Of a stretch of 32,000 bases of DNA, positions 4,125 to 26,456 are shown in pieces. A program made the position numbers and the translations under genes. A model generated the notes under the pieces. It saw nothing but the letters and a program-made list of their open reading frames with translations. It did not search any database and was not told where the DNA came from. The stretch is from Breznakia blatticola (GTDB lineage Bacteria; Bacillota_I; Bacilli_A; Erysipelotrichales; Erysipelotrichaceae): assembly GCF_004365815.1 (NCBI RefSeq), contig NZ_SODD01000025.1:1-32000 (forward strand), in the 5' to 3' direction. How positions within the stretch are numbered: the stretch's first letter is position 1; every line of letters begins with the position of its first letter.

Positions 4125-4148
4125 GACACTCTATGTAGTGTCTTTTTT
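4125..4148 (+). terminator. Rho-independent terminator after the merR-like gene
   Basis: GACACT-ctatgt-AGTGTC followed by TTTTTT. Confidence 0.6.
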
Positions 4149-4152
4149 CAAA

Positions 4153-6644: not shown

Positions 6645-6977
6645 TTAGTGCATGGCTTTTGCTTTATATTCTTCCATTTTTGATTCAATATAAATCTCTA
6701 AGATTTCCTCAGGTTGGTACCCTTGTACTTTACTAATTAATTCATCTCTAAATAAAAATAGAATCGTTGGTACTTGTTGTACCTTATAGTATGTATTTAT
6801 ATCTTTGTTTTGTTCGCTTGCATCTACAATATATACTTGTAGATTCTCAAACTTCTTACCGACATTTTGAATAATGGGTGACATTGTTGTACAGTTTGCA
6901 CAACCACCTCCACCAATTAACACCAAAGAAAATTCATTCTTTGCAAATTCATTTCTAAAATTCTCATTTGTTAGCAT
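6645..6977 (-). CDS. Thioredoxin-fold protein with atypical CANC active-site motif
   Basis: 110 aa. GGGGCANCTTMSP sits at the expected CxxC position and a cis-Pro-like QVPT lies downstream. The ATG overlaps the pflA 3' end by 14 nt, and AGGAGT lies 8 nt upstream, suggesting translational coupling. Confidence 0.7.
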   Translation of the reverse strand: MLTNENFRNEFAKNEFSLVLIGGGGCANCTTMSPIIQNVGKKFENLQVYIVDASEQNKDINTYYKVQQVPTILFLFRDELISKVQGYQPEEILEIYIESKMEEYKAKAMH

Positions 6978-7751: not shown

Positions 7752-7885
7752 CAATAAAAAATTAGCTTAATCAATTTGCCCCTATATACTATAACGAAAT
7801 TTTCTTCTCCTTATGCGGAAATCTATATAGTGTTATTGTACTTGAAATTTACAATAAAGAAAGTGCTATTTTCACAATTAGAGGT

Positions 7886-7914
7886 TTGCCTTTTTTGGTA
7901 TTGCAATTTATACT
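7886..7914 (+). promoter_or_regulatory. Candidate promoter for pyrR (TTGCCT - 17 nt - TATACT) ending 6 nt before the ATG, possibly a leaderless mRNA
   Basis: TTGCCTtttttggtattgcaattTATACTtgatatATG. No SD is visible upstream of pyrR. Confidence 0.35.
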
Positions 7915-10855: not shown

Positions 10856-12562
10856 TTATTTATTAATTACTGATTCAACGTAAGCTTCAACTTCAGCAGC
10901 AGTTTCAAATGATAAACATTTTTCAGCTACAGCTTCCATTTCTTTCTTATCTAATGATGTAACCATTTTACGAGCACGTAAGATTGAAGTTGCTGACATA
11001 GAGAATTCATCAAGTCCAAGACCTAGAAGAATTGCAACTGCATTTGGTTCTCCAGCCATTTCTCCACACATACCAGCCCATTTTCCTTCTTTGTGAGCTC
11101 CATCAATTGTCATTTTAATTAGACGTAAGATTGCTGGGTTGTATGGTTGGTATAAGTAACTTACTTTTTCACTCATACGGTCAGCAGCCATTGAGTATTG
11201 GATAAGGTCATTTGTTCCAATTGAGAAGAAGTCAGCGTGTTTAGCAAATTGGTCAGCAAGTACTGCAGCAGCAGGAATTTCAACCATCATACCGACTTCG
11301 ATGTTGTCACTAACTTCAACACCTTCAGCAATTAATTCAGCTTTACATTCTTCGAAGAATGCTTTTGCTTCTACGAATTCATTAACTGTCGCAATCATTG
11401 GGAACATAATACATAATCTTCCGTAGATTGATGCACGACATAATGCACGTAATTGTGTTCTGAAGATATCTTTTCTGTCTAAGCATAGACGAATTGCACG
11501 ATATCCTAAGAATGGGTTCATTTCTTCTGGGAATTCAAAGTAAGGAAGTTTTTTATCTCCACCGATGTCTAATGTACGAACAACGACACGTTTTCCTTTC
11601 ATTCCTTCAAGAACCATCTTGTATGCGATGAATTGCTCATCTTCTGTTGGGAATTCTTGAGAGTTCATGTATAAGAACTCTGTACGGTAAAGTCCAACAC
11701 CTTCTCCACCATTTTCTAATACACCTTCAACATCTTTTGGTGTTCCGATGTTTCCAGCTAATTCTACATGGTGACCATCTTTAGAAATTGATGGTTTATC
11801 TACTAATACTTTAAGTGCTTCTTTTTCTTCTTCGTGTGCAACACGTTTTGCTTCGTATTCCACTTTTTGTTCAGCAGTAGGATCTAAAATTACATCCCCT
11901 TTAATTGCATCAAGAATTACTTCTTGACCGTGTTTTGCTGTTTCAAGGATTCCAGCACATCCAACAACTGCAGGAATTTCTAAACTTCTTGCCATAATTG
12001 CTGAGTGACTTGTTCTACCACCAATTTCAGTAGCAAATCCTTTTGTATACGCTTTGTTTAATTGTGCTGTATCAGATGGAGTTAAATCGTAAGCAACGAT
12101 TACAACTTCTTCGTTAATTGCTGTTAAATCAGGAATTTCTACTCCTAATAAGTTAGCTTTTAAACGAACTGTAACATCTTTAATATCTGCTGCACGTTCA
12201 CGCATATATGCATCTTCCATTGCTTCGAACATAGAAACATACATATTTGCTACACTGTCAGCAGCATATTCTGCATTACAATTGTCTGAATTGATTTGTC
12301 CTTCAACAGCACCAATGAATTCTGGATCTTGTGCAACCATTAAGTGTGCATCGAAAACTGCTAATTCTTCAGCAGATAAGTTTTGTGAAGCTCTTTCCTT
12401 AATTGCTTCAATGTCCTTAACTGTTTTTTCAACTGCAGCCTTTAATTTTGCAACTTCTTCTTCTGGGTTTGCCGTTTTTTTCTCGATTTTCATTTCTGGC
12501 ATTTCAAGTTTGTATACTTTAGCAATAGCTACACCACTTGACGCCGCAATACCTTTTAACAT
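10856..12562 (-). CDS. ptsI: Phosphoenolpyruvate-protein phosphotransferase (PTS Enzyme I)
   Basis: [15 protein letters not shown] start, [13 protein letters not shown] phospho-His region and GTNDLIQY. Start set at ATG 12562 because GGAGGA lies 6 nt upstream. The ORF-track start at 12601 would overlap the -10 box. Confidence 0.92.
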
Positions 12563-12667: not shown

Positions 12668-12709
12668 AAAAACATAAGAAAACAAAAGAGCATAACCCTT
12701 TTGTTCTCT
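12668..12709 (-). terminator. Terminator after the LRR surface protein gene
   Basis: AACAAAAG/CTTTTGTT stem, extended by AGA/TCT with one mismatch. A T-rich tract follows on the minus strand. Confidence 0.5.
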
Positions 12710-12738
12710 TACATATAATACTTTGTAGTTTAGAATTG

Positions 12739-15480
12739 TTATTTTGATTTTCTTTTATTACGTAAAACAACCATTCCACCTGTCAATGCGATCAATCCAA
12801 GGTAAATAAACCATTCAACACTTGTCGAATCACCTGTATCTACGACTTTATTTGCATCTTTTACTTGCCCATTGAAATCTGGTGCAATGGATGGATTTGA
12901 AGGATTGCTTGGCGAATCTGTATTTGTCTCATTATTAACTGGTGGAAGTACAATTTTTTCCCACTTCGCAACTAATGTTACATCATTATAAATTAAGGTA
13001 TCAAAATCCCAGCTTTGTCCATCAGAAAGTTCCCATCCTTTAAAAATATATCCATCTCTTTCTGGGTCTAACGGTTTTGTTGATGTATTTCCATATTCAA
13101 CTTTTTGTGAATCAATTGGATCACTAGTTCCACCATTCAAATCAAAGATGATGTCAAACTTCGCTATTTCCCAAATATATGTATCTGGAATACTTCCATC
13201 GTAGCTATCCATAAATGTTGTACTATCTGCATATGTATTTCCAGTATGAATACCAATCCAACGACCTGTGTATTTTCCACTTGTCGTATCAATTAATGGC
13301 AATGCAGCACTCTGATCAAGTATGGCATTAGGTCCCAATTGTATAGAACTAAGAAGTGTACAATTGTAAAACATTTGCACAAAATCCGTTACATTTGATG
13401 TATCCCAATTTTCTAAATTAATTTTCTCTAAACTTTGATTTTCATAGAACATACGTTGCATATTTACTACATTACTTGTATCCCAATTGGATAAGTCTAA
13501 TTCCGTAATTGAAGGGCATAGATCAAACATATTTGACATATTAGTCACATTTGCTGTATTCCAATTCGCAATTTCTAAACCATCCAATACGGCGCAGTCA
13601 TGGAACATAAATGACATATCCATAACACTTGATGTATCCCAGTCTTTCATATCTAGTGTTTCAAGTGCACTACATCCTAAGAACATACTTCCCATGGTTG
13701 TAACATTTTCTACATTCCAATCGCTAACATCTAGGTTATTGATATTCTTACTTCTAAAAAACATTAAGTCCATTGCTGTAACACTTCCAGTATCCCAATT
13801 ACTTACATCAAGTGATTCCAAGCTTTCGCAAGCATAAAACATACTCGACATATCTGTAACATTTTCTACGTTCCAATCTGAAACATTAAGATCTGTTAAT
13901 ACTTTACAATTAACAAACATCCCACTCATATCTGTTACAACACCAACATTCCAATCATCGACTGATAATCCAGTGAGTTTGTTGCAACCATAGAACATTT
14001 GTTTCATGCTTTCCACTTTTTCTGTATTCCATGTACTTACATCAAGGTTGTCTAAAATCGTACATCCATAAAACATGCTACGCATATTTTCTACAAGTCC
14101 GACATTCCATTCTTCAACATCTAACACCTCAAGATTCGCACATCCTGAAAACATACTACTCATGTCTTTTACTGCAGCTACATTCCAAGTACTAACATCA
14201 ACATCTGAAAGTTTCGTACATCCCGAGAACATAAATGCCATCGTATTTACATTCCCTACATTCCAATCACTTACAGCAATTTCTTCCAATTTCTTACAGT
14301 TCCAAAACATGTAACTCATATCTTGAATATTATGCACATCCCAATTATCAATTGTTAATGTTGTTAGTGCTTCACAATCTGTAAACATGCTTTTTGTTGA
14401 TAATGTTTTTGATAAATCCCAACCTGAAAGATCAATGCTTGTTAATTTTGTACTACTTCTAAACATATTCTCTAGTGTTTTAACACTTGATGTTTCCCAA
14501 TCAGATAAATCTAAATTTTCTAATTTCGTACAATATCTAAACATGTTTTCCATTGTTTCAACTTTACGCACATCAAAAGATTCAACGTTAATTTCTTCCA
14601 GTGCAAAACATTGGTCAAACATGAATTTCATATCTTTAACTTCACCAGTATCCCAAGTATCTACCTTTAATTCAGTGATTATTTTACATCCTTTAAACAT
14701 TGATGACATATTTGTCACAGCACTTGTGTCCCAATCTTCTACATCAATTTCTGCAAGTACTGAACAACCATCAAACATTCCCATCATTAAGGTTACATTT
14801 TCTGTATCCCATAATGATACATCGACATTTGTTAATGCAGAACATCCTTTAAACATGTATGACATATCTGTAAAAGTTGATGTGTTCCATGATGATACAT
14901 CAATACTTGTTAGTGAACTACATCCCTCAAACATACTTTGCGCGTTAACTGGTCCTGAAAACGTAATCTTCTCTGCACCAACCACAGTTTCTAAACTTGT
15001 GAATTTTTCAAACATACTTGCTGCATTTGTAATTGTCACTGGTTGTGCAAATGTAATCTTCTTAATTTGATTTTTGTGTTGAACAAAGTTATTAGGATTT
15101 GCCCAATGTTCTCCAGTCAATACACCTTGTTGGTAACTTTTGTTTCCACATGTATTCGTTAGTGTACCACCTTCTAGCACGAGTTCTCCATCTGCATACA
15201 ACGTCCAAGTTACACCCCACGTGTTTGTATCAACAACTACACGATCTGCTTGTGGCAAAATCTCTACAGTTTTTGCACTTGGTTTTGTCTCATCCTTAAT
15301 TTCTGTTTGCTCATCTACACGCTTAACAACTTCATCTTCCTTATTAGCTGTTTCTTCGTTTACCTCATCAGTAGTTTGCTCATTTGCATGTATTTCTTCT
15401 TTTGCTAGTACAATACCGTTTGATGAAACTACAATAATTCCAATCAACATCAAAATTACTATCTTTTTTAATTTATCCAT
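12739..15480 (-). CDS. BspA-type / DUF285 leucine-rich-repeat cell-surface protein with a Listeria-Bacteroides repeat and a C-terminal anchor
   Basis: 913 aa with a signal peptide. About 22 tandem 25-aa units fit MFxxCxxLxxLDVSxW(N/D)TxxVTxM. A Flg_new-like unit is present (FDLNGGTS...GYIFKGWEL...DVTLVAKW). The C-terminus has VVDTGDST, a hydrophobic helix and an RNKRKSK tail. Confidence 0.85.
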   Translation of the reverse strand: MDKLKKIVILMLIGIIVVSSNGIVLAKEEIHANEQTTDEVNEETANKEDEVVKRVDEQTEIKDETKPSAKTVEILPQADRVVVDTNTWGVTWTLYADGELVLEGGTLTNTCGNKSYQQGVLTGEHWANPNNFVQHKNQIKKITFAQPVTITNAASMFEKFTSLETVVGAEKITFSGPVNAQSMFEGCSSLTSIDVSSWNTSTFTDMSYMFKGCSALTNVDVSLWDTENVTLMMGMFDGCSVLAEIDVEDWDTSAVTNMSSMFKGCKIITELKVDTWDTGEVKDMKFMFDQCFALEEINVESFDVRKVETMENMFRYCTKLENLDLSDWETSSVKTLENMFRSSTKLTSIDLSGWDLSKTLSTKSMFTDCEALTTLTIDNWDVHNIQDMSYMFWNCKKLEEIAVSDWNVGNVNTMAFMFSGCTKLSDVDVSTWNVAAVKDMSSMFSGCANLEVLDVEEWNVGLVENMRSMFYGCTILDNLDVSTWNTEKVESMKQMFYGCNKLTGLSVDDWNVGVVTDMSGMFVNCKVLTDLNVSDWNVENVTDMSSMFYACESLESLDVSNWDTGSVTAMDLMFFRSKNINNLDVSDWNVENVTTMGSMFLGCSALETLDMKDWDTSSVMDMSFMFHDCAVLDGLEIANWNTANVTNMSNMFDLCPSITELDLSNWDTSNVVNMQRMFYENQSLEKINLENWDTSNVTDFVQMFYNCTLLSSIQLGPNAILDQSAALPLIDTTSGKYTGRWIGIHTGNTYADSTTFMDSYDGSIPDTYIWEIAKFDIIFDLNGGTSDPIDSQKVEYGNTSTKPLDPERDGYIFKGWELSDGQSWDFDTLIYNDVTLVAKWEKIVLPPVNNETNTDSPSNPSNPSIAPDFNGQVKDANKVVDTGDSTSVEWFIYLGLIALTGGMVVLRNKRKSK
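13320..15033 (-). repeat. About 22 tandem 75-nt coding repeats (25-aa LRR units) inside the surface protein gene
   Basis: The motif W(D/N)(T/V)xxVxxMxxMF recurs with a 25-aa period about 20 times, plus two degenerate units at the N-terminal side. Confidence 0.8.
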
Positions 15481-15510: not shown

Positions 15511-15542
15511 GTTAGATATTCAAAATACAAAATAGTTTGAAC
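15511..15542 (-). promoter_or_regulatory. ECF-type promoter candidate for the LRR gene: GTTCAAAC-N15-ATATCTAAC
   Basis: The minus strand reads GTTCAAACtattttgtattttgaATATCTAAC, ending about 30 nt upstream of the LRR gene ATG. The 8-mer, 9-mer and spacing are identical to the element at 16895..16926. Confidence 0.6.
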
Positions 15543-16855
15543 TAAATTGTAAAACTGAATTCATTACAATGTTTTTTCATATCACACAACATCACTTCAA
15601 TTTTCTTGTCCTGATTTAGTGATACATACAACTCTTTTGTTAGTGGAACTTTGCTTCCATTTACAATCACATATGACAAATCATAGTTAATGTCATATTC
15701 CGCTTCTTGAACGATGAAATATCCAACATCATCTTTTACTTTGATTCCCTTTATAACAGGAATTTTTTGATCAATATTATCTACTTCAAAATATTGCTCA
15801 TCATTTCCTACTTTCACATAATACCTTCCATTATCATTCGCATACATTTGAATATATTCATCAAATATTGTGTATGCACAGTTTTCATCTTGAAATGTAA
15901 TTTGAACTGCATCAGTTACCTTTTCTTTTGTATAAATACGTATTTCAATTGGTCCGGCAATTGGTGACTGATCATACGCAATCGATGCAATCGTATCCTC
16001 TCGATTTGAAACTTTGTATACTGGATGACTCGTAATTGACGGATATACATCATAAAGCAAATCATGATCTTGTAATATTCCAAAGGCTTGTGGAAATATC
16101 ATCACTGCTGCAAGGAAAACCGTGAATAATACTCCACTTTTCTCACTTCTTATCATCGCATTCACAAAATCACGTATACTTCCATGTCGAATCGATTGCT
16201 CATTACTACCAATCGATGGATGTGTTTGCTCTTTTGCTTGATACCTATTTGTCATTTCTTGATACAACAATGGAATCCCTGTCACACTGAAGTATTTTCT
16301 AGGATGATATCCTTGATCTTTCAAATCCTTCGATACCTTCTTACGAATTTCATACAATCTACTTTTTACCTTTTTTGTGTCTACATCCATTTCACTCGCA
16401 ATTTCATCCATTGAAAATCCACCTAAGAATCGCAATTCTGCAGTTCTTTTATTGTTTTGATTCAACTTTGAAAATGACTGAATGATTGCATCCATTAAGG
16501 AAGAACGCGTTAATTCATCAATTTGATTATCTTTTGCTTCTACTACCTCTTCGATTGCATTTTCATCATCTAACTGAATATACTTATTTTGCTTATTTAA
16601 TCTTGCATTACACTCATTTGTTGCAATCGTGAACATCCATGAATGAAATGCATCAAGTTTCTTTAATTGATGAATCTTCATTTGTACTTTAAGCATCACT
16701 TCCTGAACGACTTCCTCTGCTTCATGTGCATTTTTCAAAATTGAAAATGCATAATAATAAAGAGGTCCACGATAAAACTTATAAATTTCATTTAATGCAT
16801 TTGCATTTCCTTCTTGTAGTTCCTTTACATATGCATTAGATATTCGGCTTGCCAC
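15542..16855 (-). CDS. Sigma-70 family (ECF-like) sigma factor fused to a transmembrane helix and a C-terminal extracytoplasmic domain of about 175 aa
   Basis: 437 aa. Region-2-like segment: EAEEVVQEVMLKVQMKIHQL..FHSWMFTIATNECNARL. Region-4 HTH: ELRFLGGFSMDEIASEMDVDTKKVKSRLYEIRKKV. A single hydrophobic span follows (GVLFTVFLAAVMIFPQAFGIL), then an unassigned domain. GTG start. Confidence 0.8.
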   Translation of the reverse strand: MASRISNAYVKELQEGNANALNEIYKFYRGPLYYYAFSILKNAHEAEEVVQEVMLKVQMKIHQLKKLDAFHSWMFTIATNECNARLNKQNKYIQLDDENAIEEVVEAKDNQIDELTRSSLMDAIIQSFSKLNQNNKRTAELRFLGGFSMDEIASEMDVDTKKVKSRLYEIRKKVSKDLKDQGYHPRKYFSVTGIPLLYQEMTNRYQAKEQTHPSIGSNEQSIRHGSIRDFVNAMIRSEKSGVLFTVFLAAVMIFPQAFGILQDHDLLYDVYPSITSHPVYKVSNREDTIASIAYDQSPIAGPIEIRIYTKEKVTDAVQITFQDENCAYTIFDEYIQMYANDNGRYYVKVGNDEQYFEVDNIDQKIPVIKGIKVKDDVGYFIVQEAEYDINYDLSYVIVNGSKVPLTKELYVSLNQDKKIEVMLCDMKKHCNEFSFTI

Positions 16856-16894
16856 TACACACCACCACTCCTCTCACATTCACACATCCCATTA

Positions 16895-16926
16895 GTTAGA
16901 TATGTCATTTTTTAAAAAGTTTGAAC
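16895..16926 (-). promoter_or_regulatory. ECF-type promoter candidate for the sigma gene (autoregulatory): GTTCAAAC-N15-ATATCTAAC
   Basis: The minus strand reads GTTCAAACtttttaaaaaatgacATATCTAAC, about 40 nt upstream of the sigma-gene start. It has the same flanks and spacing as 15511..15542. Confidence 0.6.
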
Positions 16927-16949: not shown

Positions 16950-16996
16950 TTAAAAAAGAAAAAAGGTTACTTCTCCCAACTGGAAAATGTAACCTT
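16950..16996 (-). terminator. Rho-independent terminator just upstream of the sigma promoter
   Basis: The minus strand reads AAGGTTAC-(18-nt loop with inner GGA/TCC pairing)-GTAACCTT followed by TTTTTTCTTTTTT. Confidence 0.55.
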
Positions 16997-17161
16997 ATAT
17001 GGTATATTTAGGTTTTTTACATTGTAAAAAAAGACGCACTTGTTGTGCTTTTCACTTGATTACCCACACTGATTGCATCATATAGTATCTATCAATTAGA
17101 AACTATATATATATCCCCTACAAATCACTTTACACACATAAGGAAAGAATTTCCTAGGTTA

Positions 17162-17190
17162 ATAATATTTTTTCAGAAGATTTCTGTCAA
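17162..17190 (-). promoter_or_regulatory. Orphan sigma-A promoter candidate (TTGACA - 17 nt - TATTAT) with no ORF downstream
   Basis: The minus strand reads TTGACAgaaatcttctgaaaaaaTATTAT. The following approx 120-200 nt contain no ORF longer than 9 codons and end at T-run hairpins (about 17035 and 16950-16996). Confidence 0.45.
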
Positions 17191-17212
17191 CAATTTTGCT
17201 TCTTTATCGATT

Positions 17213-17251
17213 AAAAAACTTCGTTAGTTTTATGTCTCTAACGAAGTTTTT
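17213..17251. terminator. Bidirectional hairpin terminator (13-bp stem) after the ribokinase remnant
   Basis: AAAACTTCGTTAG-(10-nt loop)-CTAACGAAGTTTT, flanked by an A-run and a T-run. Confidence 0.6.
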
Positions 17252-17254
17252 ATG

Positions 17255-17430
17255 TTATGTATTATTTAAAAATGCTTCGATTTTTTCCTGCGTCGGAATT
17301 CCTGTTTGTGCACCCAAGTGCTCTGTTGATATCGATGCTCCTGCACTTGCAAATTGAATTGCTTCCTTCAACTTGATTCCTTTTGCTAATTGCATTGCAA
17401 GAATCCCATTAAATGTATCTCCAACAGCAA
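17255..17430 (-). pseudogene. 3' remnant of a ribokinase/PfkB-family carbohydrate kinase gene (last approx 55 codons only)
   Basis: ..GDTFNGILAMQLAKGIKLKEAIQFASAGASISTEHLGAQTGIPTQEKIEAFL matches the C-terminal (G)AGDTF..A......G......A...A.AAAA..V...GA....P part of ribokinases. The first approx 250 codons are absent, and upstream sequence is non-coding. Confidence 0.65.
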
Positions 17431-17490
17431 TCAAAAATATTATAACAACCAACAAAAAAGTGTAAAATACACTACAAAAAAGTGCGAAAG

Positions 17491-17534
17491 TAAAAATTGC
17501 TAAAACCTTATGAATAAAGGGCTTAGCAATTTTT
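17491..17534 (-). terminator. Long hairpin (12-bp outer stem AAAAATTGCTAA/TTAGCAATTTTT plus inner CCTT/AAGG) downstream of the HAD gene
   Basis: Read directly from the sequence. Flanks are T-rich on both strands. It lies 80 nt after the HAD stop codon. Confidence 0.45.
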
Positions 17535-17615
17535 TATGCTTTTTTACTTCTAAAGTCTAGATACCAATGGATATAGAAAGAACATAAGAAATGTATCAAA
17601 TTTATGTCTGTTAAT

Positions 17616-18339: not shown

Positions 18340-19230
18340 TTATTTTATATTTCGAATGTGTCCTTTACTTGTTTCTAGTAAAGCTTCTGCTTTAGCTACA
18401 TCACAGTTATGTAAGATCATCACTATTGCAACTTTCACTCTGTTCCCACTTGCTTCTATTGCTTGTTCGATTACTTCATCACTTGCATCTGTAACTTCTT
18501 TAATGATATTTTTCCCTCTTTGTACAAGTTTTTTATTTGATAGCTTTACATCCACCATCAGGTTTTCATAAGCTTTTCCTACTCCAACCATCGCTCCTGT
18601 TGAAATCATATTCAAGACTAGTTTTTGAGTTGTTCCTGCTTTTAAGCGTGTGGATCCAGTCAATACTTCTGGTCCAGGAACTGCTTCAATTGCCAGTTTT
18701 GCAACTGCTCCAATTTCACTATTTTTGTTGCATGCAATTGCTACTGTATGACATCCAATTTCATTTGCATATTCTAATGCTTCAATTACATATGGTGTTC
18801 TTCCACTTGCTGCCAATCCAACAACTAAATCATTTTCATTTGCATCAATACGCTTTAAATCTTCAACACCTTCACTTAGTGAATCTTCACTTCCTTCTTT
18901 TGCTTTTACGAATGCACTATCTCCTCCGGCAATCAAACCGACAACTGTATCATATGATACCCCGAAGGTTGGTGGACATTCTACTGCATCTAGTACACCT
19001 AAACGACCTGAAGTACCTGCACCCATATAAATGATTCGTCCACCATTACTTAATGCTTCAATTCCCCAAGTAATTGCTTGTGCAATTTCAGGAAGTACTT
19101 TTTCAATAGCTTCAGGAACTTTTTTATCTTCATCATTCATTTTCTTGGCAAATTCAAGAGGTGATAAAATATCTAAATCCATTGTATTTGGATTTCTTTG
19201 TTCCGTTGTTAATTTCGTTAAATCTATCAT
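18340..19230 (-). CDS. murQ: N-acetylmuramic acid 6-phosphate etherase (copy 1)
   Basis: 296 aa, colinear with E. coli MurQ (TEQRNPNT.DLD, GGRIIYMGAGTSGRLGVLDA.ECPPTFGV, AASGRTPYVI, TGSTRLKAGTTQKLVLNM, GNLMVDV). Confidence 0.9.
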   Translation of the reverse strand: MIDLTKLTTEQRNPNTMDLDILSPLEFAKKMNDEDKKVPEAIEKVLPEIAQAITWGIEALSNGGRIIYMGAGTSGRLGVLDAVECPPTFGVSYDTVVGLIAGGDSAFVKAKEGSEDSLSEGVEDLKRIDANENDLVVGLAASGRTPYVIEALEYANEIGCHTVAIACNKNSEIGAVAKLAIEAVPGPEVLTGSTRLKAGTTQKLVLNMISTGAMVGVGKAYENLMVDVKLSNKKLVQRGKNIIKEVTDASDEVIEQAIEASGNRVKVAIVMILHNCDVAKAEALLETSKGHIRNIK

Positions 19231-23084: not shown

Positions 23085-23975
23085 CTATTTAATGTTTCGA
23101 ATGTGTCCTTTACTTGTTTCTAATAAAGCTTCTGCTTTAGCTACATCGCAGTTATGTAAAATCATCACTATTGCAACTTTCACTCTATTTCCACTTGCTT
23201 CTATTGCTTGTTCGATTACTTCATCACTTGCATCTGTAACTTCTTTAATGATATTTTTTCCTCTTTGTACAAGTTTTTTATTTGATAGTTTTACATCCAC
23301 CATCAGATTTTCATAAGCTTTTCCTACTCCAACCATCGCTCCTGTTGATAGCATATTTAGGATTAGTTTTTGGGTCGTCCCTGCTTTTAAGCGTGTGGAT
23401 CCAGTTAATACTTCTGGTCCAGGAACTGCTTCGATTGCCAGTTTTGCGACTGCTCCAATTTCACTATTCTTGTTACATGCAATTGCTACTGTATGACATC
23501 CAATTTCATTTGCATATCCTAATGCTTCTATTACATATGGTGTTCTTCCGCTTGCTGCCAATCCAACAATTAAATCATTTTCATTTGCATCAATACGCTT
23601 TAAATCTTCAACACCTTCACTTAATGAATCTTCACTTCCTTCTTTTGCTTTTACGAATGCACTATCTCCTCCAGCAATCAAACCGACAACTGTATCATAT
23701 GACACACCAAATGTTGGTGGACATTCTACTGCATCTAGTACACCTAGACGTCCAGAAGTTCCTGCACCCATATAAATGATTCGTCCACCATTACTTAATG
23801 CTTCAATTCCCCAAGTAATTGCTTGTGCAATTTCAGGAAGTACTTTTTCAATAGCTTCGGGAACTTTTTTATCTTCATCATTCATTTTCTTGGCAAATTC
23901 AAGAGGTGATAAAATATCTAAATCCATTGTATTTGGATTTCTTTGTTCCGTTGTTAATTTCGTTAAATCTATCAT
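23085..23975 (-). CDS. murQ: N-acetylmuramic acid 6-phosphate etherase (copy 2)
   Basis: The protein is identical to copy 1 except V/I, E/G, V/L-type changes (4 of 296). Start placed at MIDLTKL (23975) with AGGAG upstream. The ORF-track 17-aa N-terminal extension overlaps the preceding gene. Confidence 0.9.
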   Translation of the reverse strand: MIDLTKLTTEQRNPNTMDLDILSPLEFAKKMNDEDKKVPEAIEKVLPEIAQAITWGIEALSNGGRIIYMGAGTSGRLGVLDAVECPPTFGVSYDTVVGLIAGGDSAFVKAKEGSEDSLSEGVEDLKRIDANENDLIVGLAASGRTPYVIEALGYANEIGCHTVAIACNKNSEIGAVAKLAIEAVPGPEVLTGSTRLKAGTTQKLILNMLSTGAMVGVGKAYENLMVDVKLSNKKLVQRGKNIIKEVTDASDEVIEQAIEASGNRVKVAIVMILHNCDVAKAEALLETSKGHIRNIK

Positions 23976-23988
23976 GTTTTCTCCTATT
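23085..23988 (-). repeat. Dispersed duplicate B of murQ plus its SD (partner 18340..19243)
   Basis: See the partner entry. Identity extends through GGAGAAAACATG but not further upstream or downstream. Confidence 0.85.
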
Positions 23989-25024
23989 TTTCTACGAACA
24001 TCAGTTTTGTTCCAGGTGTAATACACTCTAATATACTAAGGTAATCTGGATGAACATTACCAATAACATTCACTCTTTCATCAGCAGTGAAATCCTTTTT
24101 TGTTATTTGAATTTCTCCACTGTATCGCAAGTATTTCTTGTTATCTATAGTAATACTTCCATAATCGCGAGATATCGTATTTACTGCTTCTATAATCGCT
24201 CCTTGGCTAGCAAATTCACGACTTTCTTGAAGGCGAATCAGTTTACTAGGAGAATCAATCCGATTGGTAAATACTTGATTTATAAATGGCTTTAATAGCT
24301 CATGAACATTCACTACAGGAATTCGAATTACTTGATCATCTAAGGTATCTGACAGCAATTGATAATCCATAAAGTTCATACCTATATCACCAACGAATAC
24401 GTATTCTGCATAATGATTCCACAAAATTTCTAATGCAGCTACATAACCATTCATATCACGATGTTTTTCTAGTGTTGGTAACCCTTCAAATATAGGTCCT
24501 CTATATTTCTCACCTGGTATAAATGCAATGCTTTTTACTTCGTGTTTTACTAATGTTTCATGCATATCTTTCAGTTGTTTTACATCCAATCCTGTATCTT
24601 TACGGGGATAGAAATTATGCATTGCATATACGCGTCCTTTTGGAAGTTTTTCGATTAATTTCACATCTATCGTTGATGCATTAACTACTAACGGTACTTC
24701 TTTGGCAATTGCAATTGTTTCCTCATCACTAAACCCATAATCCAAACGAACAAGATCAATATCTAATAATTGAATTAAACTATGTACATTTGATAAGCCA
24801 AACTTCGTTAACGTTCTTTTTGAAATATCTGCAATAATTTTTGTATCCTGTTTTTTTAGTAATCGAAACATTTCCTTTACATCTTCAACATATGCATCAT
24901 CATATTCTTCAGCTATATGTAATGATGTAAAAACCATATTACCTTGTAAGGGCAACGTTTGAAGTTGCCCTTTTTGTTCTCTAAATGTTGTTACGTAGTA
25001 TGCAAAACCAATGGTCTTAAGCAC
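23984..25024 (-). CDS. DUF871 family protein, likely MupG-type 6-phospho-N-acetylmuramidase
   Basis: 346 aa. It has an N-terminal TIM-barrel-like segment with the FTSLHIAEE motif. It sits between murP and murQ, as in the S. aureus mupG-murP-murQ context recalled from the literature. It overlaps the murP end by 8 nt. Confidence 0.7.
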   Translation of the reverse strand: MLKTIGFAYYVTTFREQKGQLQTLPLQGNMVFTSLHIAEEYDDAYVEDVKEMFRLLKKQDTKIIADISKRTLTKFGLSNVHSLIQLLDIDLVRLDYGFSDEETIAIAKEVPLVVNASTIDVKLIEKLPKGRVYAMHNFYPRKDTGLDVKQLKDMHETLVKHEVKSIAFIPGEKYRGPIFEGLPTLEKHRDMNGYVAALEILWNHYAEYVFVGDIGMNFMDYQLLSDTLDDQVIRIPVVNVHELLKPFINQVFTNRIDSPSKLIRLQESREFASQGAIIEAVNTISRDYGSITIDNKKYLRYSGEIQITKKDFTADERVNVIGNVHPDYLSILECITPGTKLMFVEK

Positions 25025-26456
25025 GTTCTACTTCTTCCTTCGAAACAAAGAACCAAGTTACAATAAACCCACCGATGTATGCAACAATTAGTCCAATGAA
25101 GTAGTAAAGCATTCCCATTGCACCATTGCTTCCACCTGTCATTAATGGAATTGCTACCATTCCTGAAGGTCCCCATGCAGTTGCCATTACTTTGGTTAAC
25201 ATTACAAATGCTCCACCAAATCCAGCTCCAATTCCAGCTGTAATAAATGGTTTACCCATTGGAAGAGTTACCCCATAGATTAATGGTTCACCAACTCCAA
25301 GGATACCTGCTGGTAATGCACCTACAATAACTTCACGTAGACGTTGATTGTTTGCTTGTTTTGCTTTAATGTAAATCGCGATTGCTGCTCCAACTTGACC
25401 AGCTCCTGCCATTGCTAATACTGGGAATAATGTAACTCCACCTAACTTTTCTAATTGAATTGCATAGATTGGAATTAATCCATGGTGAAGTCCTAATAAC
25501 ACCATTGGTAAGAACAATGCAGATAATACAAATCCTGAGATTACTTGTACTACTGGGTTACTTGAGTTAATAAGGATATTTAATGCACTAATCAAGAGAT
25601 CAGATAAGAAACCTGCGACTGGCATAATCGCAAATACAAAGATCACTCCTGTAATTACGATTGCACAAATTGGTGTTACGATTAAATCTAAGATTTCTGG
25701 TACGACTTTACGTAATCCTTTTTCTACTTTTGCTAAAATCCAAACACCGAAGATAACTCCGATAATTCCACCTTTACCTGTTGTCAGAATTGATTCTAAA
25801 GGTACATCTACATTATACCAACCAAAGAATGTTGATAATGTGATGATTCCAGGTGCAATTGAGATTGCCCCAATCATTCCTCCTAACGCTTCTGTTGCTC
25901 CAAATTGTTTTGCAGCATTTACACCAGTGAAAATAGCAAAGTATGATAGGAATCCAGATCCTAACAATGAAAGTGTTTGTTGGATTAAGAACCATACACT
26001 TGTTTCATTAACAGTAATTACTCCTGATGTTCCAAGTTGTCCAATTAAACTTGCAATACCATTTAATAATCCAGCAGCAATAATTGCTGGAATTAGTGGA
26101 ATAAAGATATTTCCAATTGTACGTAATCCTTGTTTTAATGGTGAGTCTTTTTGATTTGCTTTTACATCCGCTTTGTTTTCTTCCCAACTTGGGTCGATTT
26201 CTCCAGCGTGTACTCCCATTTCATTGATCAGAATATCAGCAACTCTTTTTGCTTTTCCTGGTCCTAGTACAATTTGCATCGTTGCATCTTCAACAACACC
26301 CATTACACCTGATGTTGTCTTCAACTCTTCTAATTGTACTTTACTCATGTCTTTAATTTTCACACGTAAACGTGTCATACAGTTTGCAGCAGTAAGAATA
26401 TTTTCTTTACCACCTAACAGCTCTAATAATTTTGCTGCTAATTCTTGATTATTCAT
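25017..26456 (-). CDS. murP: PTS glucose-superfamily IIBC component, MurNAc(-GlcNAc)-type
   Basis: The IIB domain carries LLGGKENILTAANCMTRLRV (phospho-Cys), followed by a IIC domain of about 10 TM helices. It has no IIA domain. Gene context is murQ/DUF871. Confidence 0.8.
   Translation of the reverse strand: MNNQELAAKLLELLGGKENILTAANCMTRLRVKIKDMSKVQLEELKTTSGVMGVVEDATMQIVLGPGKAKRVADILINEMGVHAGEIDPSWEENKADVKANQKDSPLKQGLRTIGNIFIPLIPAIIAAGLLNGIASLIGQLGTSGVITVNETSVWFLIQQTLSLLGSGFLSYFAIFTGVNAAKQFGATEALGGMIGAISIAPGIITLSTFFGWYNVDVPLESILTTGKGGIIGVIFGVWILAKVEKGLRKVVPEILDLIVTPICAIVITGVIFVFAIMPVAGFLSDLLISALNILINSSNPVVQVISGFVLSALFLPMVLLGLHHGLIPIYAIQLEKLGGVTLFPVLAMAGAGQVGAAIAIYIKAKQANNQRLREVIVGALPAGILGVGEPLIYGVTLPMGKPFITAGIGAGFGGAFVMLTKVMATAWGPSGMVAIPLMTGGSNGAMGMLYYFIGLIVAYIGGFIVTWFFVSKEEVERA

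Follow-up and report, generated by a model that had tools for sequence, protein, structure and literature searches.

A two-gene locus of the cockroach gut bacterium Breznakia blatticola probably forms a self-contained signalling-to-surface module, in which a membrane-anchored sigma factor, once freed by proteolysis, would transcribe its own gene and that of an adjacent adhesin. This proposal draws on an exact pair of predicted promoters in the window (the whole 32 kb stretch of DNA analysed), on the domain architecture of the sigma protein, on a similar arrangement at homologous loci, and on analogy with fused sigma factors that have been described elsewhere.

Organization of the locus

The module occupies 4.3 kb of the minus strand, from 16996 to 12672, and is bounded by a terminator at each end. 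Its elements follow one another in this order:

16950..16996, minus strand: intrinsic terminator 5' of the module (RNA fold and sequence)
16895..16926, minus strand: P_sig, predicted ECF-type promoter of the sigma gene (exact motif match)
15542..16855, minus strand: gene for a 437-aa membrane-anchored ECF sigma factor (open reading frame, Pfam and NCBIfam)
15511..15542, minus strand: P_lrr, predicted ECF-type promoter of the adhesin gene, its motif identical to that of P_sig (exact motif match)
12739..15480, minus strand: gene for a 913-aa surface protein (Pfam, NCBIfam and sequence)
12672..12714, minus strand: intrinsic terminator at the module end (terminator scan, 20-pair stem and T-run)

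The first terminator, which the first-pass annotation had already recognized, has a stem of 8+6 bp followed by the U-run UUUUUUCUUUUUU (-19.6 kcal/mol, z = -3.45), and is predicted to shield the module from an upstream HAD-hydrolase gene and a pseudogene remnant. The second lies upstream of ptsI, a gene named from its translation. Rfam and tRNA scans, run on the window and on the 620-nt gap 5' of the module, gave no credible match. Both reading frames have the lengths originally given (437 and 913 aa), and the sigma protein matches, at 100% identity, a Breznakia blatticola protein annotated as 'RNA polymerase sigma factor (sigma-70 family)'.

A pair of identical predicted promoters

The first-pass annotation described a bipartite element, GTTCAAAC-N15-ATATCTAAC, upstream of both genes, and this description agrees closely with our measurements. 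The element is present in two minus-strand copies with 0 mismatches, bearing in mind that matching a pattern to its own source sequence is partly circular, and the 32 kb window holds no third copy even when up to 3 mismatches are tolerated. One further 5' base (A) is common to both copies, which extends the repeat to AGTTCAAAC...ATATCTAAC. The P_sig copy ends 39 nt 5' of the sigma GTG start at 16855 and the P_lrr copy ends 30 nt 5' of the adhesin ATG at 15480, close to the 40 and 30 nt first estimated, and the first G of P_lrr is also the last base of the TAG stop codon of the sigma gene (a 1-base overlap). The two spacers, which had been called unrelated, agree at 6 of 15 positions, roughly the level of chance at 34.6% GC, and the pair is therefore not a duplicated block.

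We predict from the sequence that GTTCAAAC acts as the -35 element (core AAC) and ATATCTAAC as the -10 element (core TATC-TAA). An RpoE/ECF promoter layout had been suggested earlier; the ECF type stands, but the strict RpoE TCTAA does not, as the -10 aligns better as (T/C)(A/G)TC-TAA, a variant of the common ECF 'CGTC' that reads TATC in the window, with no CG. There is no terminator between the sigma gene and the adhesin gene, so the latter could also be co-transcribed from P_sig.

Base composition predicts about 1.5e-5 second exact copies of the 17-base bipartite sequence per 32 kb window. When the 400 nt 5' of the sigma gene were compared with 16 kb by an unbiased bipartite scan, this pair was the top same-strand match (17/17). 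The exact pattern was found only 50 times in 241 million metagenome records, always singly, which gives the background rate, and none of these 50 matches came from a relative of the B. blatticola locus. Moreover, the 13-base motif core is absent from 94 other loci that together cover roughly 1 Mb.

A sigma factor, membrane anchor and putative sensor in one polypeptide

The sigma protein combines an ECF core, a TM helix and an extracytoplasmic domain in a single chain:

16586..16783, minus strand: sigma-70 region 2, residues 25-90 (PF04542, 45.4 bits, cut-off 24; AF2 pLDDT >90)
16334..16471, minus strand: sigma-70 region 4, residues 129-174 (PF08281, 27.6 bits, cut-off 25.7; AF2 helices 120-180)
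16265..16312, minus strand: juxta-sigma4 motif G-Y-x-P-x-K-Y-F-S-x4-P-x-L, residues 182-197 (family alignments)
16070..16135, minus strand: single TM helix, residues ~241-262, N-in/C-out (hydropathy peak 2.18)
15545..15991, minus strand: extracytoplasmic C-terminal domain, residues 289-437 (AF2 pLDDT 93.9)

The sigma regions named in the first-pass annotation are well supported, given that Sigma70_r2, Sigma70_ECF and r4_2 all exceed their Pfam cut-offs and that the protein clears the threshold of the NCBIfam ECF superfamily model; the scores include PF07638 (39.1 bits, cut-off 21.1) and TIGR02937 (76.6, cut-off 42.9). With sigma2 and sigma4 above curated thresholds and Foldseek matches that are themselves ECF sigmas, the protein belongs to the ECF (group 4) sigma-70 factors. 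Pfam and NCBIfam give no match to sigma region 3, and no named ECF equivalog in NCBIfam is reached, the best being SigW (NF007223), whose 83.6 bits compare with a cut-off of 209, while all others lie far below theirs. Solved structures of ECF sigmas superpose on the sigma part of the AF2 model, whose sigma2/sigma4 arrangement resembles the compact form of anti-sigma-bound factors (TM 0.75 for CnrH/CnrY, 0.72 for SigW/RsiW) and fits RNAP-bound open forms poorly (TM 0.3-0.4), although AF2 can also produce such a compact conformation by default.

Between sigma4 and the TM helix lies a linker of roughly 60 aa. It begins with the juxta-sigma4 motif, in which G182, P185, Y188 and P195 show little or no variation across 12-69 family sequences, continues with a helix at 193-211, and is disordered at residues 213-240 (pLDDT <50). 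The motif may be an in-cis inhibitory or docking element. No anti-sigma domain (zf-HC2, FecR, RskA or similar) was matched by Pfam in the full protein or in 24 linker sequences, a linker profile found no match among PDB sequences, and the zinc-binding ZAS motif H-x3-C-x2-C is absent from residues 176-240. The idea of the linker as an anti-sigma domain thus lacks support from Pfam and the PDB-sequence profile, and we retain it only as a functional possibility. The window also has no separate anti-sigma gene, as had been stated.

Hydropathy and charge topology both bear out the single TM helix that was originally proposed. Mean net charge is +1.4 before the helix and -1.3 after it, and the former exceeds the latter in 91% of 69 family members. 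A disordered juxtamembrane stretch (residues 254-285) leads into the ectodomain, which the AF2 model resolves into two tandem Ig/FN3-like beta-sandwiches. The earlier description of a domain with no nameable family also holds, in that neither Pfam nor PDB sequences contain one. Foldseek with the predicted structure returned generic tandem Ig/FN3 matches only (TM 0.3-0.4), and more specific fold assignments, such as a carbohydrate-binding module or PepSY, were rejected on this result. In a profile search of 1.84 billion cluster representatives, this ectodomain type occurred only within the sigma-TM-ectodomain architecture, and we regard it as a family-specific, putative sensor.

The neighbouring adhesin

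The 913-aa protein comprises a signal peptide (N-terminus MDKLKKIVILMLIGIIVVSSNGIVLAKEE), about 20 DUF285/PARCEL (BspA-type LRR) repeats, a Listeria-Bacteroides repeat, a Pro-rich stalk and an LPXTG-type anchor. Matches to the protein are PF03382 (1.9e-135, 7 stretches), LRR_5 (6e-38), Flg_new (1.6e-14) and TIGR02167 (1.9e-150, 20 stretches), and the tandem DUF285/PARCEL repeats together with the signal peptide make it a BspA-type LRR/PARCEL (DUF285) surface protein. The C-terminal tail, ...VVDTGDSTSVEWFIYLGLIALTGGMVVLRNKRKSK, has a variant LPXTG motif, and the sorting signal is recognized by TIGR01167 (19.7 bits against a cut-off of 15.9), whereas Pfam Gram_pos_anchor remains under its cut-off (15.5 against 20). 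No sortase gene lies within the window; one is found near the homologous locus L092. The first-pass annotation had called the target giant, but at this length it is a mid-sized adhesin.

A lineage-restricted family with predicted locus-specific promoters

The search that revealed the family used a profile of residues 176-437 and returned 89 clusters, 69 of them represented by full-length proteins (405-480 aa). All 69 carry the C-terminal domain at about residues 270-430, and all but one (68) also match the N-terminal ECF profile. An exhaustive profile search was needed to see this family, given that word-indexed homologue searches recovered merely 3 and 8 proteins. When a generic ECF peptide pattern (12 sequences) was run against genome contigs, three true family loci (L009-L011) stood among the 80 matches listed, and B. 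blatticola did not. Because 69 full-length representatives share the layout, the fusion is real, and the concern that a frameshift had artificially joined two genes can be dismissed. Named members come from Breznakia and Coprobacillaceae.

The exact promoter motif is not conserved at homologous loci, but the arrangement is, an outcome that favours the first-pass annotation. A locus-specific AAC-N16-19-(C/T)(G/A)TC-like element 5' of the sigma gene recurs 5' of a neighbouring gene at 11 of 14 loci, with strand and spacing preserved, while its sequence varies from locus to locus. A predicted promoter of conserved layout precedes the sigma gene at 13 of the 14, and the distance to most start codons is 20-130 nt. 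Besides the B. blatticola window, 10 loci have a second copy of the element 5' of a neighbouring gene:

L001: CCAACATT..CCGTCATATAG, four copies
L005: cAACmTT..CTTATCTAwG
L009: TGAAC-N17-CGACTAAT (shared motif), second copy before glgCDA, not a surface gene
L010: TGAAC-N17-GCGTCwTAC
L011: ATCAAACTT..GwwACTA
L091: cAAC-N17-CTCCTT
L092: AACC..TTGTCCAACTAA
L093: TCGAACGAA..AGGTCTAAT
L094: CAAACT..TTGTCA
L095: CCAGAAAA-N14-CGTCTTA, second copy before a 94-aa ORF

The second copy precedes a secreted-protein gene in 9 of the 11 loci. Three of the 14 show no clear pair; two are short contigs (L089 and L090) and one is a tight operon (L096). Downstream genes encode a signal peptide and/or LRR, DUF285, Flg_new or Ig domains at 12 of 14 loci, with L089 and L090 outside the comparison. 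This co-variation of promoter and locus supports the predicted autoregulation and dedicated adhesin target. A shared ECF-like motif, TGAAC-N17-CGwCTAA, is also found 5' of sigma genes in six distant loci and 5' of glgCDA, and another sigma may therefore contribute.

Relation to known systems

The first-pass annotation presented the one-polypeptide sigma/sensor as an unusual design, but it has precedents: in IutY and the ECF48, ECF52 and ECF53 groups, a sigma is fused to an anti-sigma-like part and a TM segment is present. IutY, a sigma/anti-sigma hybrid of Pseudomonas putida (ECF243), has been demonstrated to be released by Prc and RseP (PMC5411451). Like IutY, the B. blatticola protein is a single chain that starts with an ECF sigma domain, crosses the membrane once and ends in an extracytoplasmic domain (PMC5411451, PMC8999054), and it has a dedicated neighbouring surface gene as its likely target, a position held by iutA in the IutY system. 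However, IutY is a Gram-negative FecI/FecR-type fusion with a FecR-like periplasmic domain and serves a TonB-dependent receptor, whereas B. blatticola belongs to the Gram-positive Erysipelotrichales, its tandem Ig-like ectodomain matches neither FecR nor any other family, and the output is an LPXTG adhesin.

The actinobacterial ECF48, ECF52 and ECF53 proteins (e.g. SCO4117 of Streptomyces coelicolor) likewise join an ECF core to a long C-terminal extension with a TM segment and an extracellular domain, and their activation by proteolysis has been proposed (PMC8999054, PMC5826349). Their extensions have one or two TM helices and also include an anti-sigma domain of the zinc-finger (ZAS-like) type, a carbohydrate-binding domain and a region rich in proline; the B. 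blatticola sigma has no detectable counterpart of these three. These groups also belong to a different phylum and have no paired adhesin gene.

In its sigma domain, the protein is most similar to SigW/RsiW and SigV/RsiV, classical Bacillota systems that pair an ECF sigma with a single-pass anti-sigma (SigW in NCBIfam, and SigW/RsiW as the top Foldseek match). The order of sigma domain, cytoplasmic segment, TM helix and ectodomain is as would arise from in-frame fusion of a sigma gene to a downstream anti-sigma gene, and the autoregulated AAC...CGT-type promoters of these systems resemble the promoters predicted for the module. In contrast, SigW/RsiW and SigV/RsiV are two proteins each and control envelope-stress regulons, whereas B. 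blatticola has one protein with a single adhesin gene as its likely target, and the equivalog cut-offs are missed. More broadly, the SigI/RsgI sets of Clostridium thermocellum are paralogous pairs of sigma and membrane sensor with distinct extracellular modules, their own promoter specificity, and surface or extracellular targets. SigI is not an ECF factor and RsgI, which bears carbohydrate-binding modules, is a protein of its own. The resemblance to the Breznakia family is a functional analogy only.

Proposed mechanism and alternatives

ECF factors usually autoregulate and are encoded beside their targets (PMC7826278). We propose that the sigma domain recognises (A)GTTCAAAC-N15-ATATCTAAC, with AAC as the -35 and TATC-TAA as the -10, and that it would transcribe its own gene from P_sig (positive autoregulation) and the adjacent sortase-anchored DUF285/PARCEL-LRR adhesin gene from P_lrr, with read-through from P_sig adding to the latter. 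By analogy, the full-length protein would be held inactive at the membrane through tethering and/or the conserved post-sigma4 segment, until a cue from outside the cell reaches the Ig-like ectodomain. Site-1 cleavage in the disordered residues 254-285, followed by intramembrane cleavage of the RasP/RseP type, might then free the sigma domain to join RNA polymerase. We infer proteolytic release to be the favoured mode of activation, as in IutY and ECF52; no gene for a site-1 or site-2 protease lies within the window, so this part of the scheme is put forward by analogy only. The regulon may be larger than one gene.

An alternative that we consider unlikely is that the sigma factor works while anchored, is never released, and brings RNA polymerase to both predicted promoters from its place in the membrane. 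The ectodomain might then act allosterically or by oligomerisation, like one-component regulators of the ToxR/CadC type, or anchoring might simply place adhesin transcription and translation beside the secretion and sortase machinery. A linker without a recognisable anti-sigma domain, long and disordered enough to allow reach, would suit such a protein, as would the observations that the targets examined are all secreted or anchored proteins and that, in a distant subfamily, translational coupling links the sigma gene to the gene for a membrane-anchored partner of roughly 400 aa. However, IutY, which alone among TM-containing sigma fusions has been characterised, needs cleavage, the disordered stretch that separates the TM helix from the Ig domains looks accessible to proteases, and the conserved post-sigma4 motif and compact modelled sigma better fit an inhibited resting state. 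We would entertain only as a rather improbable extension the notion that the whole family consists of membrane-resident, orthogonal sigmas, each ectodomain reading its own adhesin or a host ligand, with a master-sigma layer acting through the shared TGAAC-N17-CGACTAA promoter predicted 5' of many family members. If true, this would amount to surface-occupancy feedback for each adhesin, with transcription spatially coupled to secretion and sortase anchoring.

Proteolytic release and anchored action both assume that the fused sigma reads the paired motifs. The link from sigma to motif is predicted from sequence, and the motifs might instead be sites of another alternative sigma or of a DNA-binding regulator that co-controls both genes, with the fused sigma having its targets elsewhere; the TGAAC-N17-CGwCTAA motif of the six distant loci shows that these genomes also have other sigma-type inputs. 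Yet from one locus to the next the paired motif varies together with the sigma protein, whereas its position, strand and spacing are constant. A shared regulator would not be expected to leave this pattern, but a sigma and its own promoter would, and the AAC core, the 16-19 nt spacing, the pyrimidine-purine-TC element and the distances to most start codons fit promoters better than operators. We therefore see little chance that another factor accounts for the pair. There is a negligible probability that the pair has no regulatory role and either arose by chance or was left behind by a small duplicated or mobile sequence. The genome and the motif are both AT-rich and the partial circularity noted above applies, but the small calculated expectation, the first rank in the unbiased scan, the sparse single matches in metagenomes and the like arrangement with different sequences at 10 other loci effectively rule this out.

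Implications of the family

Although one-polypeptide sigma/sensor ECFs are already known as a mechanism class, the small, lineage-restricted Erysipelotrichales form is new, and the literature searched yielded no publication on it. It represents a previously undescribed Bacillota ECF lineage in which sigma, membrane anchor and putative sensor are one protein, with an extension that has a tandem Ig-like ectodomain and no known anti-sigma domain. The B. blatticola fusion is the clearest Gram-positive counterpart of IutY that we have found, and its module should be tractable, being compact and terminator-bounded, with two identical predicted promoters and one output gene. The pairing of a putative extracellular sensing domain with single BspA/PARCEL-type adhesin genes in insect-gut bacteria suggests that surface remodelling is switched adhesin by adhesin.

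Genomes with this family carry at least 2-4 paralogues. As each has a surface-protein gene and a promoter sequence to itself, the sequences suggest that the sigma-promoter pairs form orthogonal channels for remodelling the cell surface, and natural paralogues with visibly different promoters offer a ready set of potentially orthogonal sigma-promoter pairs. The B. blatticola paralogue is P0005.

A sigma factor fused to a transmembrane helix and an Ig-like ectodomain

The 437-aa protein is 100% identical to a protein of Breznakia blatticola (classified in the Erysipelotrichaceae) that is annotated only as a sigma-70-family factor. The sigma domains proposed in the first-pass annotation are present: Sigma70_r2, Sigma70_ECF, Sigma70_r4_2 and the NCBIfam ECF superfamily model all score above their curated cut-offs, and an ECF sigma membership test likewise places the protein in this group. 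It falls far below the cut-off of every named ECF equivalog, the best being SigW (83.6 bits versus 209). As had been claimed, there is a single transmembrane (TM) segment, a hydrophobic helix at about residues 241-262. Among 69 family members, mean net charge is +1.4 in the 15 residues before this helix and -1.3 in the 15 after it, and the charge before exceeds the charge after in 91%. From this difference, the sigma domain is predicted to lie inside the cell and the C-terminus outside.

An AlphaFold2 model based on a 69-sequence alignment predicts sigma2 and sigma4 with confidence, along with a helix at 193-211 (pLDDT ~78), disorder at residues 254-285 and an all-beta domain at residues 289-437, which reaches pLDDT 93.9 when the C-terminal domain is modelled on its own. 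Foldseek searches of the PDB with this domain return only generic tandem Ig/FN3-like modules (c-MET IPT, CbhA Fn3, SiiE BIg; best E = 9e-4, TM 0.3-0.4), and neither Pfam nor a PDB sequence-profile search yields a family, which agrees with the earlier failure to name one. Thus, as modelled, the ectodomain is a pair of Ig-like beta-sandwiches of an unnamed family. The segment directly after sigma4, G-Y-x-P-x-K-Y-F-S-x4-P-x-L (residues 182-197), ranks with the most strongly conserved parts of the entire protein, and it matches no known anti-sigma domain in Pfam or PDB sequences.

By function, the fused sigma resembles IutY and the actinobacterial ECF48/52/53 groups. It lacks the FecR-type or zinc-finger anti-sigma domain that is typical of those fusions. 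The literature searched yielded no paper dealing with this family or with gene regulation in Breznakia.

Distribution of the fusion

A profile built from the three closest proteins (residues 176-437), searched against 1.84 billion cluster representatives, matched 89 clusters, 69 of them 405-480 aa long. All 69 carry a hydrophobic segment near residue 240 and the C-terminal domain consistently at about residues 270-430, and 68 also match the N-terminal ECF domain profile. The possibility that the fusion is a frameshift artefact joining two genes, raised at first pass, is excluded by these 69 full-length members of the same architecture. The shorter matches have no N-terminus and look like fragments, and the C-terminal domain was seen in no other architecture among the 89 clusters. 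Named members comprise a second B. blatticola paralogue (WP_134169508), at least four paralogues in B. pachnodae and proteins from Coprobacillaceae MAGs; one related locus (L010) is from Breznakia sp. PF5-3, and most of the remaining members were found in Logan assemblies of sequencing runs. On this distribution, the family is small, lineage-restricted and expanded within genomes.

A paired promoter-like motif in the window

Features of the module (all minus strand)
16950-16996: terminator upstream of the sigma gene (-19.6 kcal/mol, z = -3.45, U-run)
16895-16926: motif copy 1, GTTCAAAC-N15-ATATCTAAC, exact match (P_sig, predicted promoter)
15542-16855: 437-aa sigma ORF; GTG start 39 nt after the end of copy 1
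15511-15542: motif copy 2, GTTCAAAC-N15-ATATCTAAC, exact match (P_lrr, predicted promoter); overlaps the TAG of the sigma ORF by one base
12739-15480: 913-aa adhesin ORF; ATG 30 nt after the end of copy 2
12672-12714: second terminator, closing the module before ptsI

The two motif copies and the upstream terminator are as first described. Both copies match with 0 mismatches and have one further upstream base (A) in common, their spacers are indeed unrelated (6 of 15 positions alike, which is chance level), and the window holds no third copy even at <=3 mismatches. From base composition (window GC, 34.6%), a second exact copy is expected about 1.5e-5 times per 32 kb. Because a shuffle test of the motif in the window is partly circular, we also ran a scan that assumes no motif, in which each 32-nt frame of the 400 nt preceding the sigma gene was compared, under an 8+9 bipartite mask, with both strands of 16 kb; its best same-strand match is the motif pair (17/17). 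The exact pattern occurs 50 times in 241 million metagenome records, each time singly, and none of these 50 contigs is related to the window or to the fused-sigma family. The 13-base motif core was not found in 94 other loci. Within the first codons of the sigma gene (R-I-S-N), ATATCTAAT at 16835-16843 (minus strand) is one base off the -10 nonamer, and it is probably coincidental since no -35 element lies at the right distance.

In the 913-aa protein, about 20 DUF285/PARCEL (BspA-type LRR) repeats are accompanied by a signal peptide, a Listeria-Bacteroides repeat, a stalk rich in Pro and a sorting signal of LPXTG type. No sortase gene is present in the window. At a related locus, a sortase gene (L092:5788-6621) precedes a family sigma gene by about 1.4 kb, which fits the LPXTG-type anchors of the target proteins.

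Predicted promoter pairs that vary with the sigma factor

Promoter-like copies in related loci encoding fused sigma factors
L001: CCAACATT...CCGTCATATAG, variant CAAACATT...GTCTTATATA; four copies: one about 300 nt upstream of sigma, one in the interval from sigma to gene 2 and two ahead of gene 3
L005: cAACmTT...CTTATCTAwG; copies precede sigma and an LRR_5 gene
L091: cAAC-N17-CTCCTT; copies precede sigma and a DUF285+Flg_new gene
L010: TGAAC-N17-GCGTCwTAC; copies precede sigma and a gene whose secreted product is at least 996 aa long
L011: ATCAAACTT...GwwACTA; copies precede sigma and a gene whose secreted product is at least 1216 aa long
L092: AACC-N15-TTGTCCAACTAA; two copies
L093: TCGAACGAA-N13-AGGTCTAAT; two copies
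L094: CAAACT-N15-TTGTCA; two copies
L095: CCAGAAAA-N14-CGTCTTAyTwGTAGAG; copies precede sigma and a 94-aa ORF
L009: TGAAC-N17-CGACTAAT; copies precede sigma and, at a distance of 5.6 kb, glgCDA

Across the 13 further loci that we read, the exact motif of the window is not kept, but its arrangement is. All promoter-like copies are intergenic and share the strand of the sigma gene; for most of them the distance from their end to a start codon is 20-130 nt (two L001 copies are about 300 nt away). Two short contigs (L089, L090) and a tight three-gene operon (L096) have a candidate promoter upstream of the sigma gene only. When the copies are aligned on AAC, the -10 parts read (C/T)(G/A)TC followed by A/T-rich bases, 16-19 nt downstream; AAC-N16-19-(C/T)(G/A)TC is the general ECF layout, with TATC-TAA of the window as one variant. 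In all 12 loci where the genes following the sigma gene were examined (the 14 without L089 and L090), these genes encode LRR/DUF285/Flg_new/Ig-like domains, a signal peptide, or both.

Promoter sequence varies together with the sigma protein across loci while position, strand and spacing stay constant. This is the pattern expected of sigma factors and their cognate promoters, and it is our main argument that the regulatory reading of the first-pass annotation is right. ECF factors commonly autoregulate and are encoded beside their targets (PMC7826278).

Proposed mechanism

We infer that the fused sigma would recognise the motif, autoregulate and drive the adhesin gene. The adhesin gene could also be reached by read-through from P_sig, because no terminator was found in the 61-nt gap between the two genes. 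By analogy with IutY, the membrane-anchored sigma would be inactive until a cue at the ectodomain triggered site-1 and then site-2 proteolysis, which would free the sigma domain. IutY activation requires Prc and RseP (PMC5411451), and a proteolytic mechanism has been proposed for ECF48/52/53 (PMC8999054).

The main rival to release by proteolysis is that the sigma is active while still anchored, as no anti-sigma domain is recognisable in the linker, whose length would allow the anchored sigma to reach. Two weak hints point instead to an inhibited resting state. One is the conserved post-sigma4 motif. The other is the modelled sigma2/sigma4 arrangement, which might be a modelling default: it superposes on anti-sigma-bound ECFs (CnrH/CnrY, TM 0.75, rmsd 4.6; SigW/RsiW, TM 0.72) and fits RNAP-bound forms poorly (TM 0.3-0.4, rmsd ~26).

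Additional elements and partner genes

Six distant family loci share a second ECF-like motif, TGAAC-N17-CG(A/T)CTAA, 100-190 nt upstream of their fused-sigma genes, and in B. pachnodae it also precedes glgC-glgD-glgA.

Copies of TGAAC-N17-CG(A/T)CTAA
L009:1257-1285 and 6899-6927
L089:7831-7859
L092:7810-7838
L093:6779-6807
L094:1147-1175
L096: about 7860-7890

A scan returned six matches in five family loci, whereas the other 89 loci had none and the motif is absent from the window; the seventh copy was read in L096. The motif is distal to a more proximal ECF-like element, which is locus-specific and paired in L092-L094. It may point to a master sigma that acts above these modules, or to paralogues that cross-activate one another.

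An (A)TGTGTG(T)GG element follows the -10 at a distance of 10-40 nt in the predicted 5' leaders of the window sigma gene and of the three closest loci (seven leaders).

Copies of (A)TGTGTG(T)GG
Window: 16876-16886 (minus)
L001:7976-7991, 9376 and 11511-11530
L005:611 and 2021
L091:2729-2736 and 4145-4152

The element accounts for most plus-strand TGTGTG in the closest loci (2/3 in L005, 4/7 in L091, 6/8 in L001), and in the adhesin leader of the window it is present only in degenerate form (AAGTGTTATAG).

Sigma genes of the distant subfamily overlap or abut a gene whose product, ~380-420 aa long, combines a signal peptide and Flg_new-like repeats with a C-terminal TM anchor.

Partner genes
L010:4592-5800
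L011:3503-4684
L092:9256-10389
L093:8158-9357
L096:9297-10568

The four compared (all but that of L096) are mutually homologous at 25-36% identity. A gene for a giant secreted protein follows in L010, L011, L092 and L096, and the L093 contig ends too soon. The window has no counterpart of this middle gene, whose product might act with the sigma ectodomain as a co-sensor or partner.

Genomic surroundings

Flanking genes are of housekeeping sugar and peptidoglycan-recycling types, among them an HAD hydrolase, two MurQ-like genes, NanE, mannose-type PTS components, MupG and ptsI. The paralogous MurQ-like SIS-domain genes (18340-19230 and 23085-24026, both minus), with MupG, PTS EIIBC, NanE, mannose-type PTS components and an RpiR regulator, form an extended amino-sugar/MurNAc recycling cluster around the module (further coordinates, 23984-26456). 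The ORF-poor gap at 16997-17615 has no Rfam family match. It contains a 66-aa ORF (17255-17455, minus; C-terminus ...AGASISTEHLGAQTGIPTQEKIEAFLNNT) that, judged by eye, resembles what is left of the C-terminus of a PfkB/ribokinase-type sugar kinase; this would indicate gene decay immediately upstream of the module. The gap also holds two sigma-70-like promoters, at 17466-17439 and 17190-17162.
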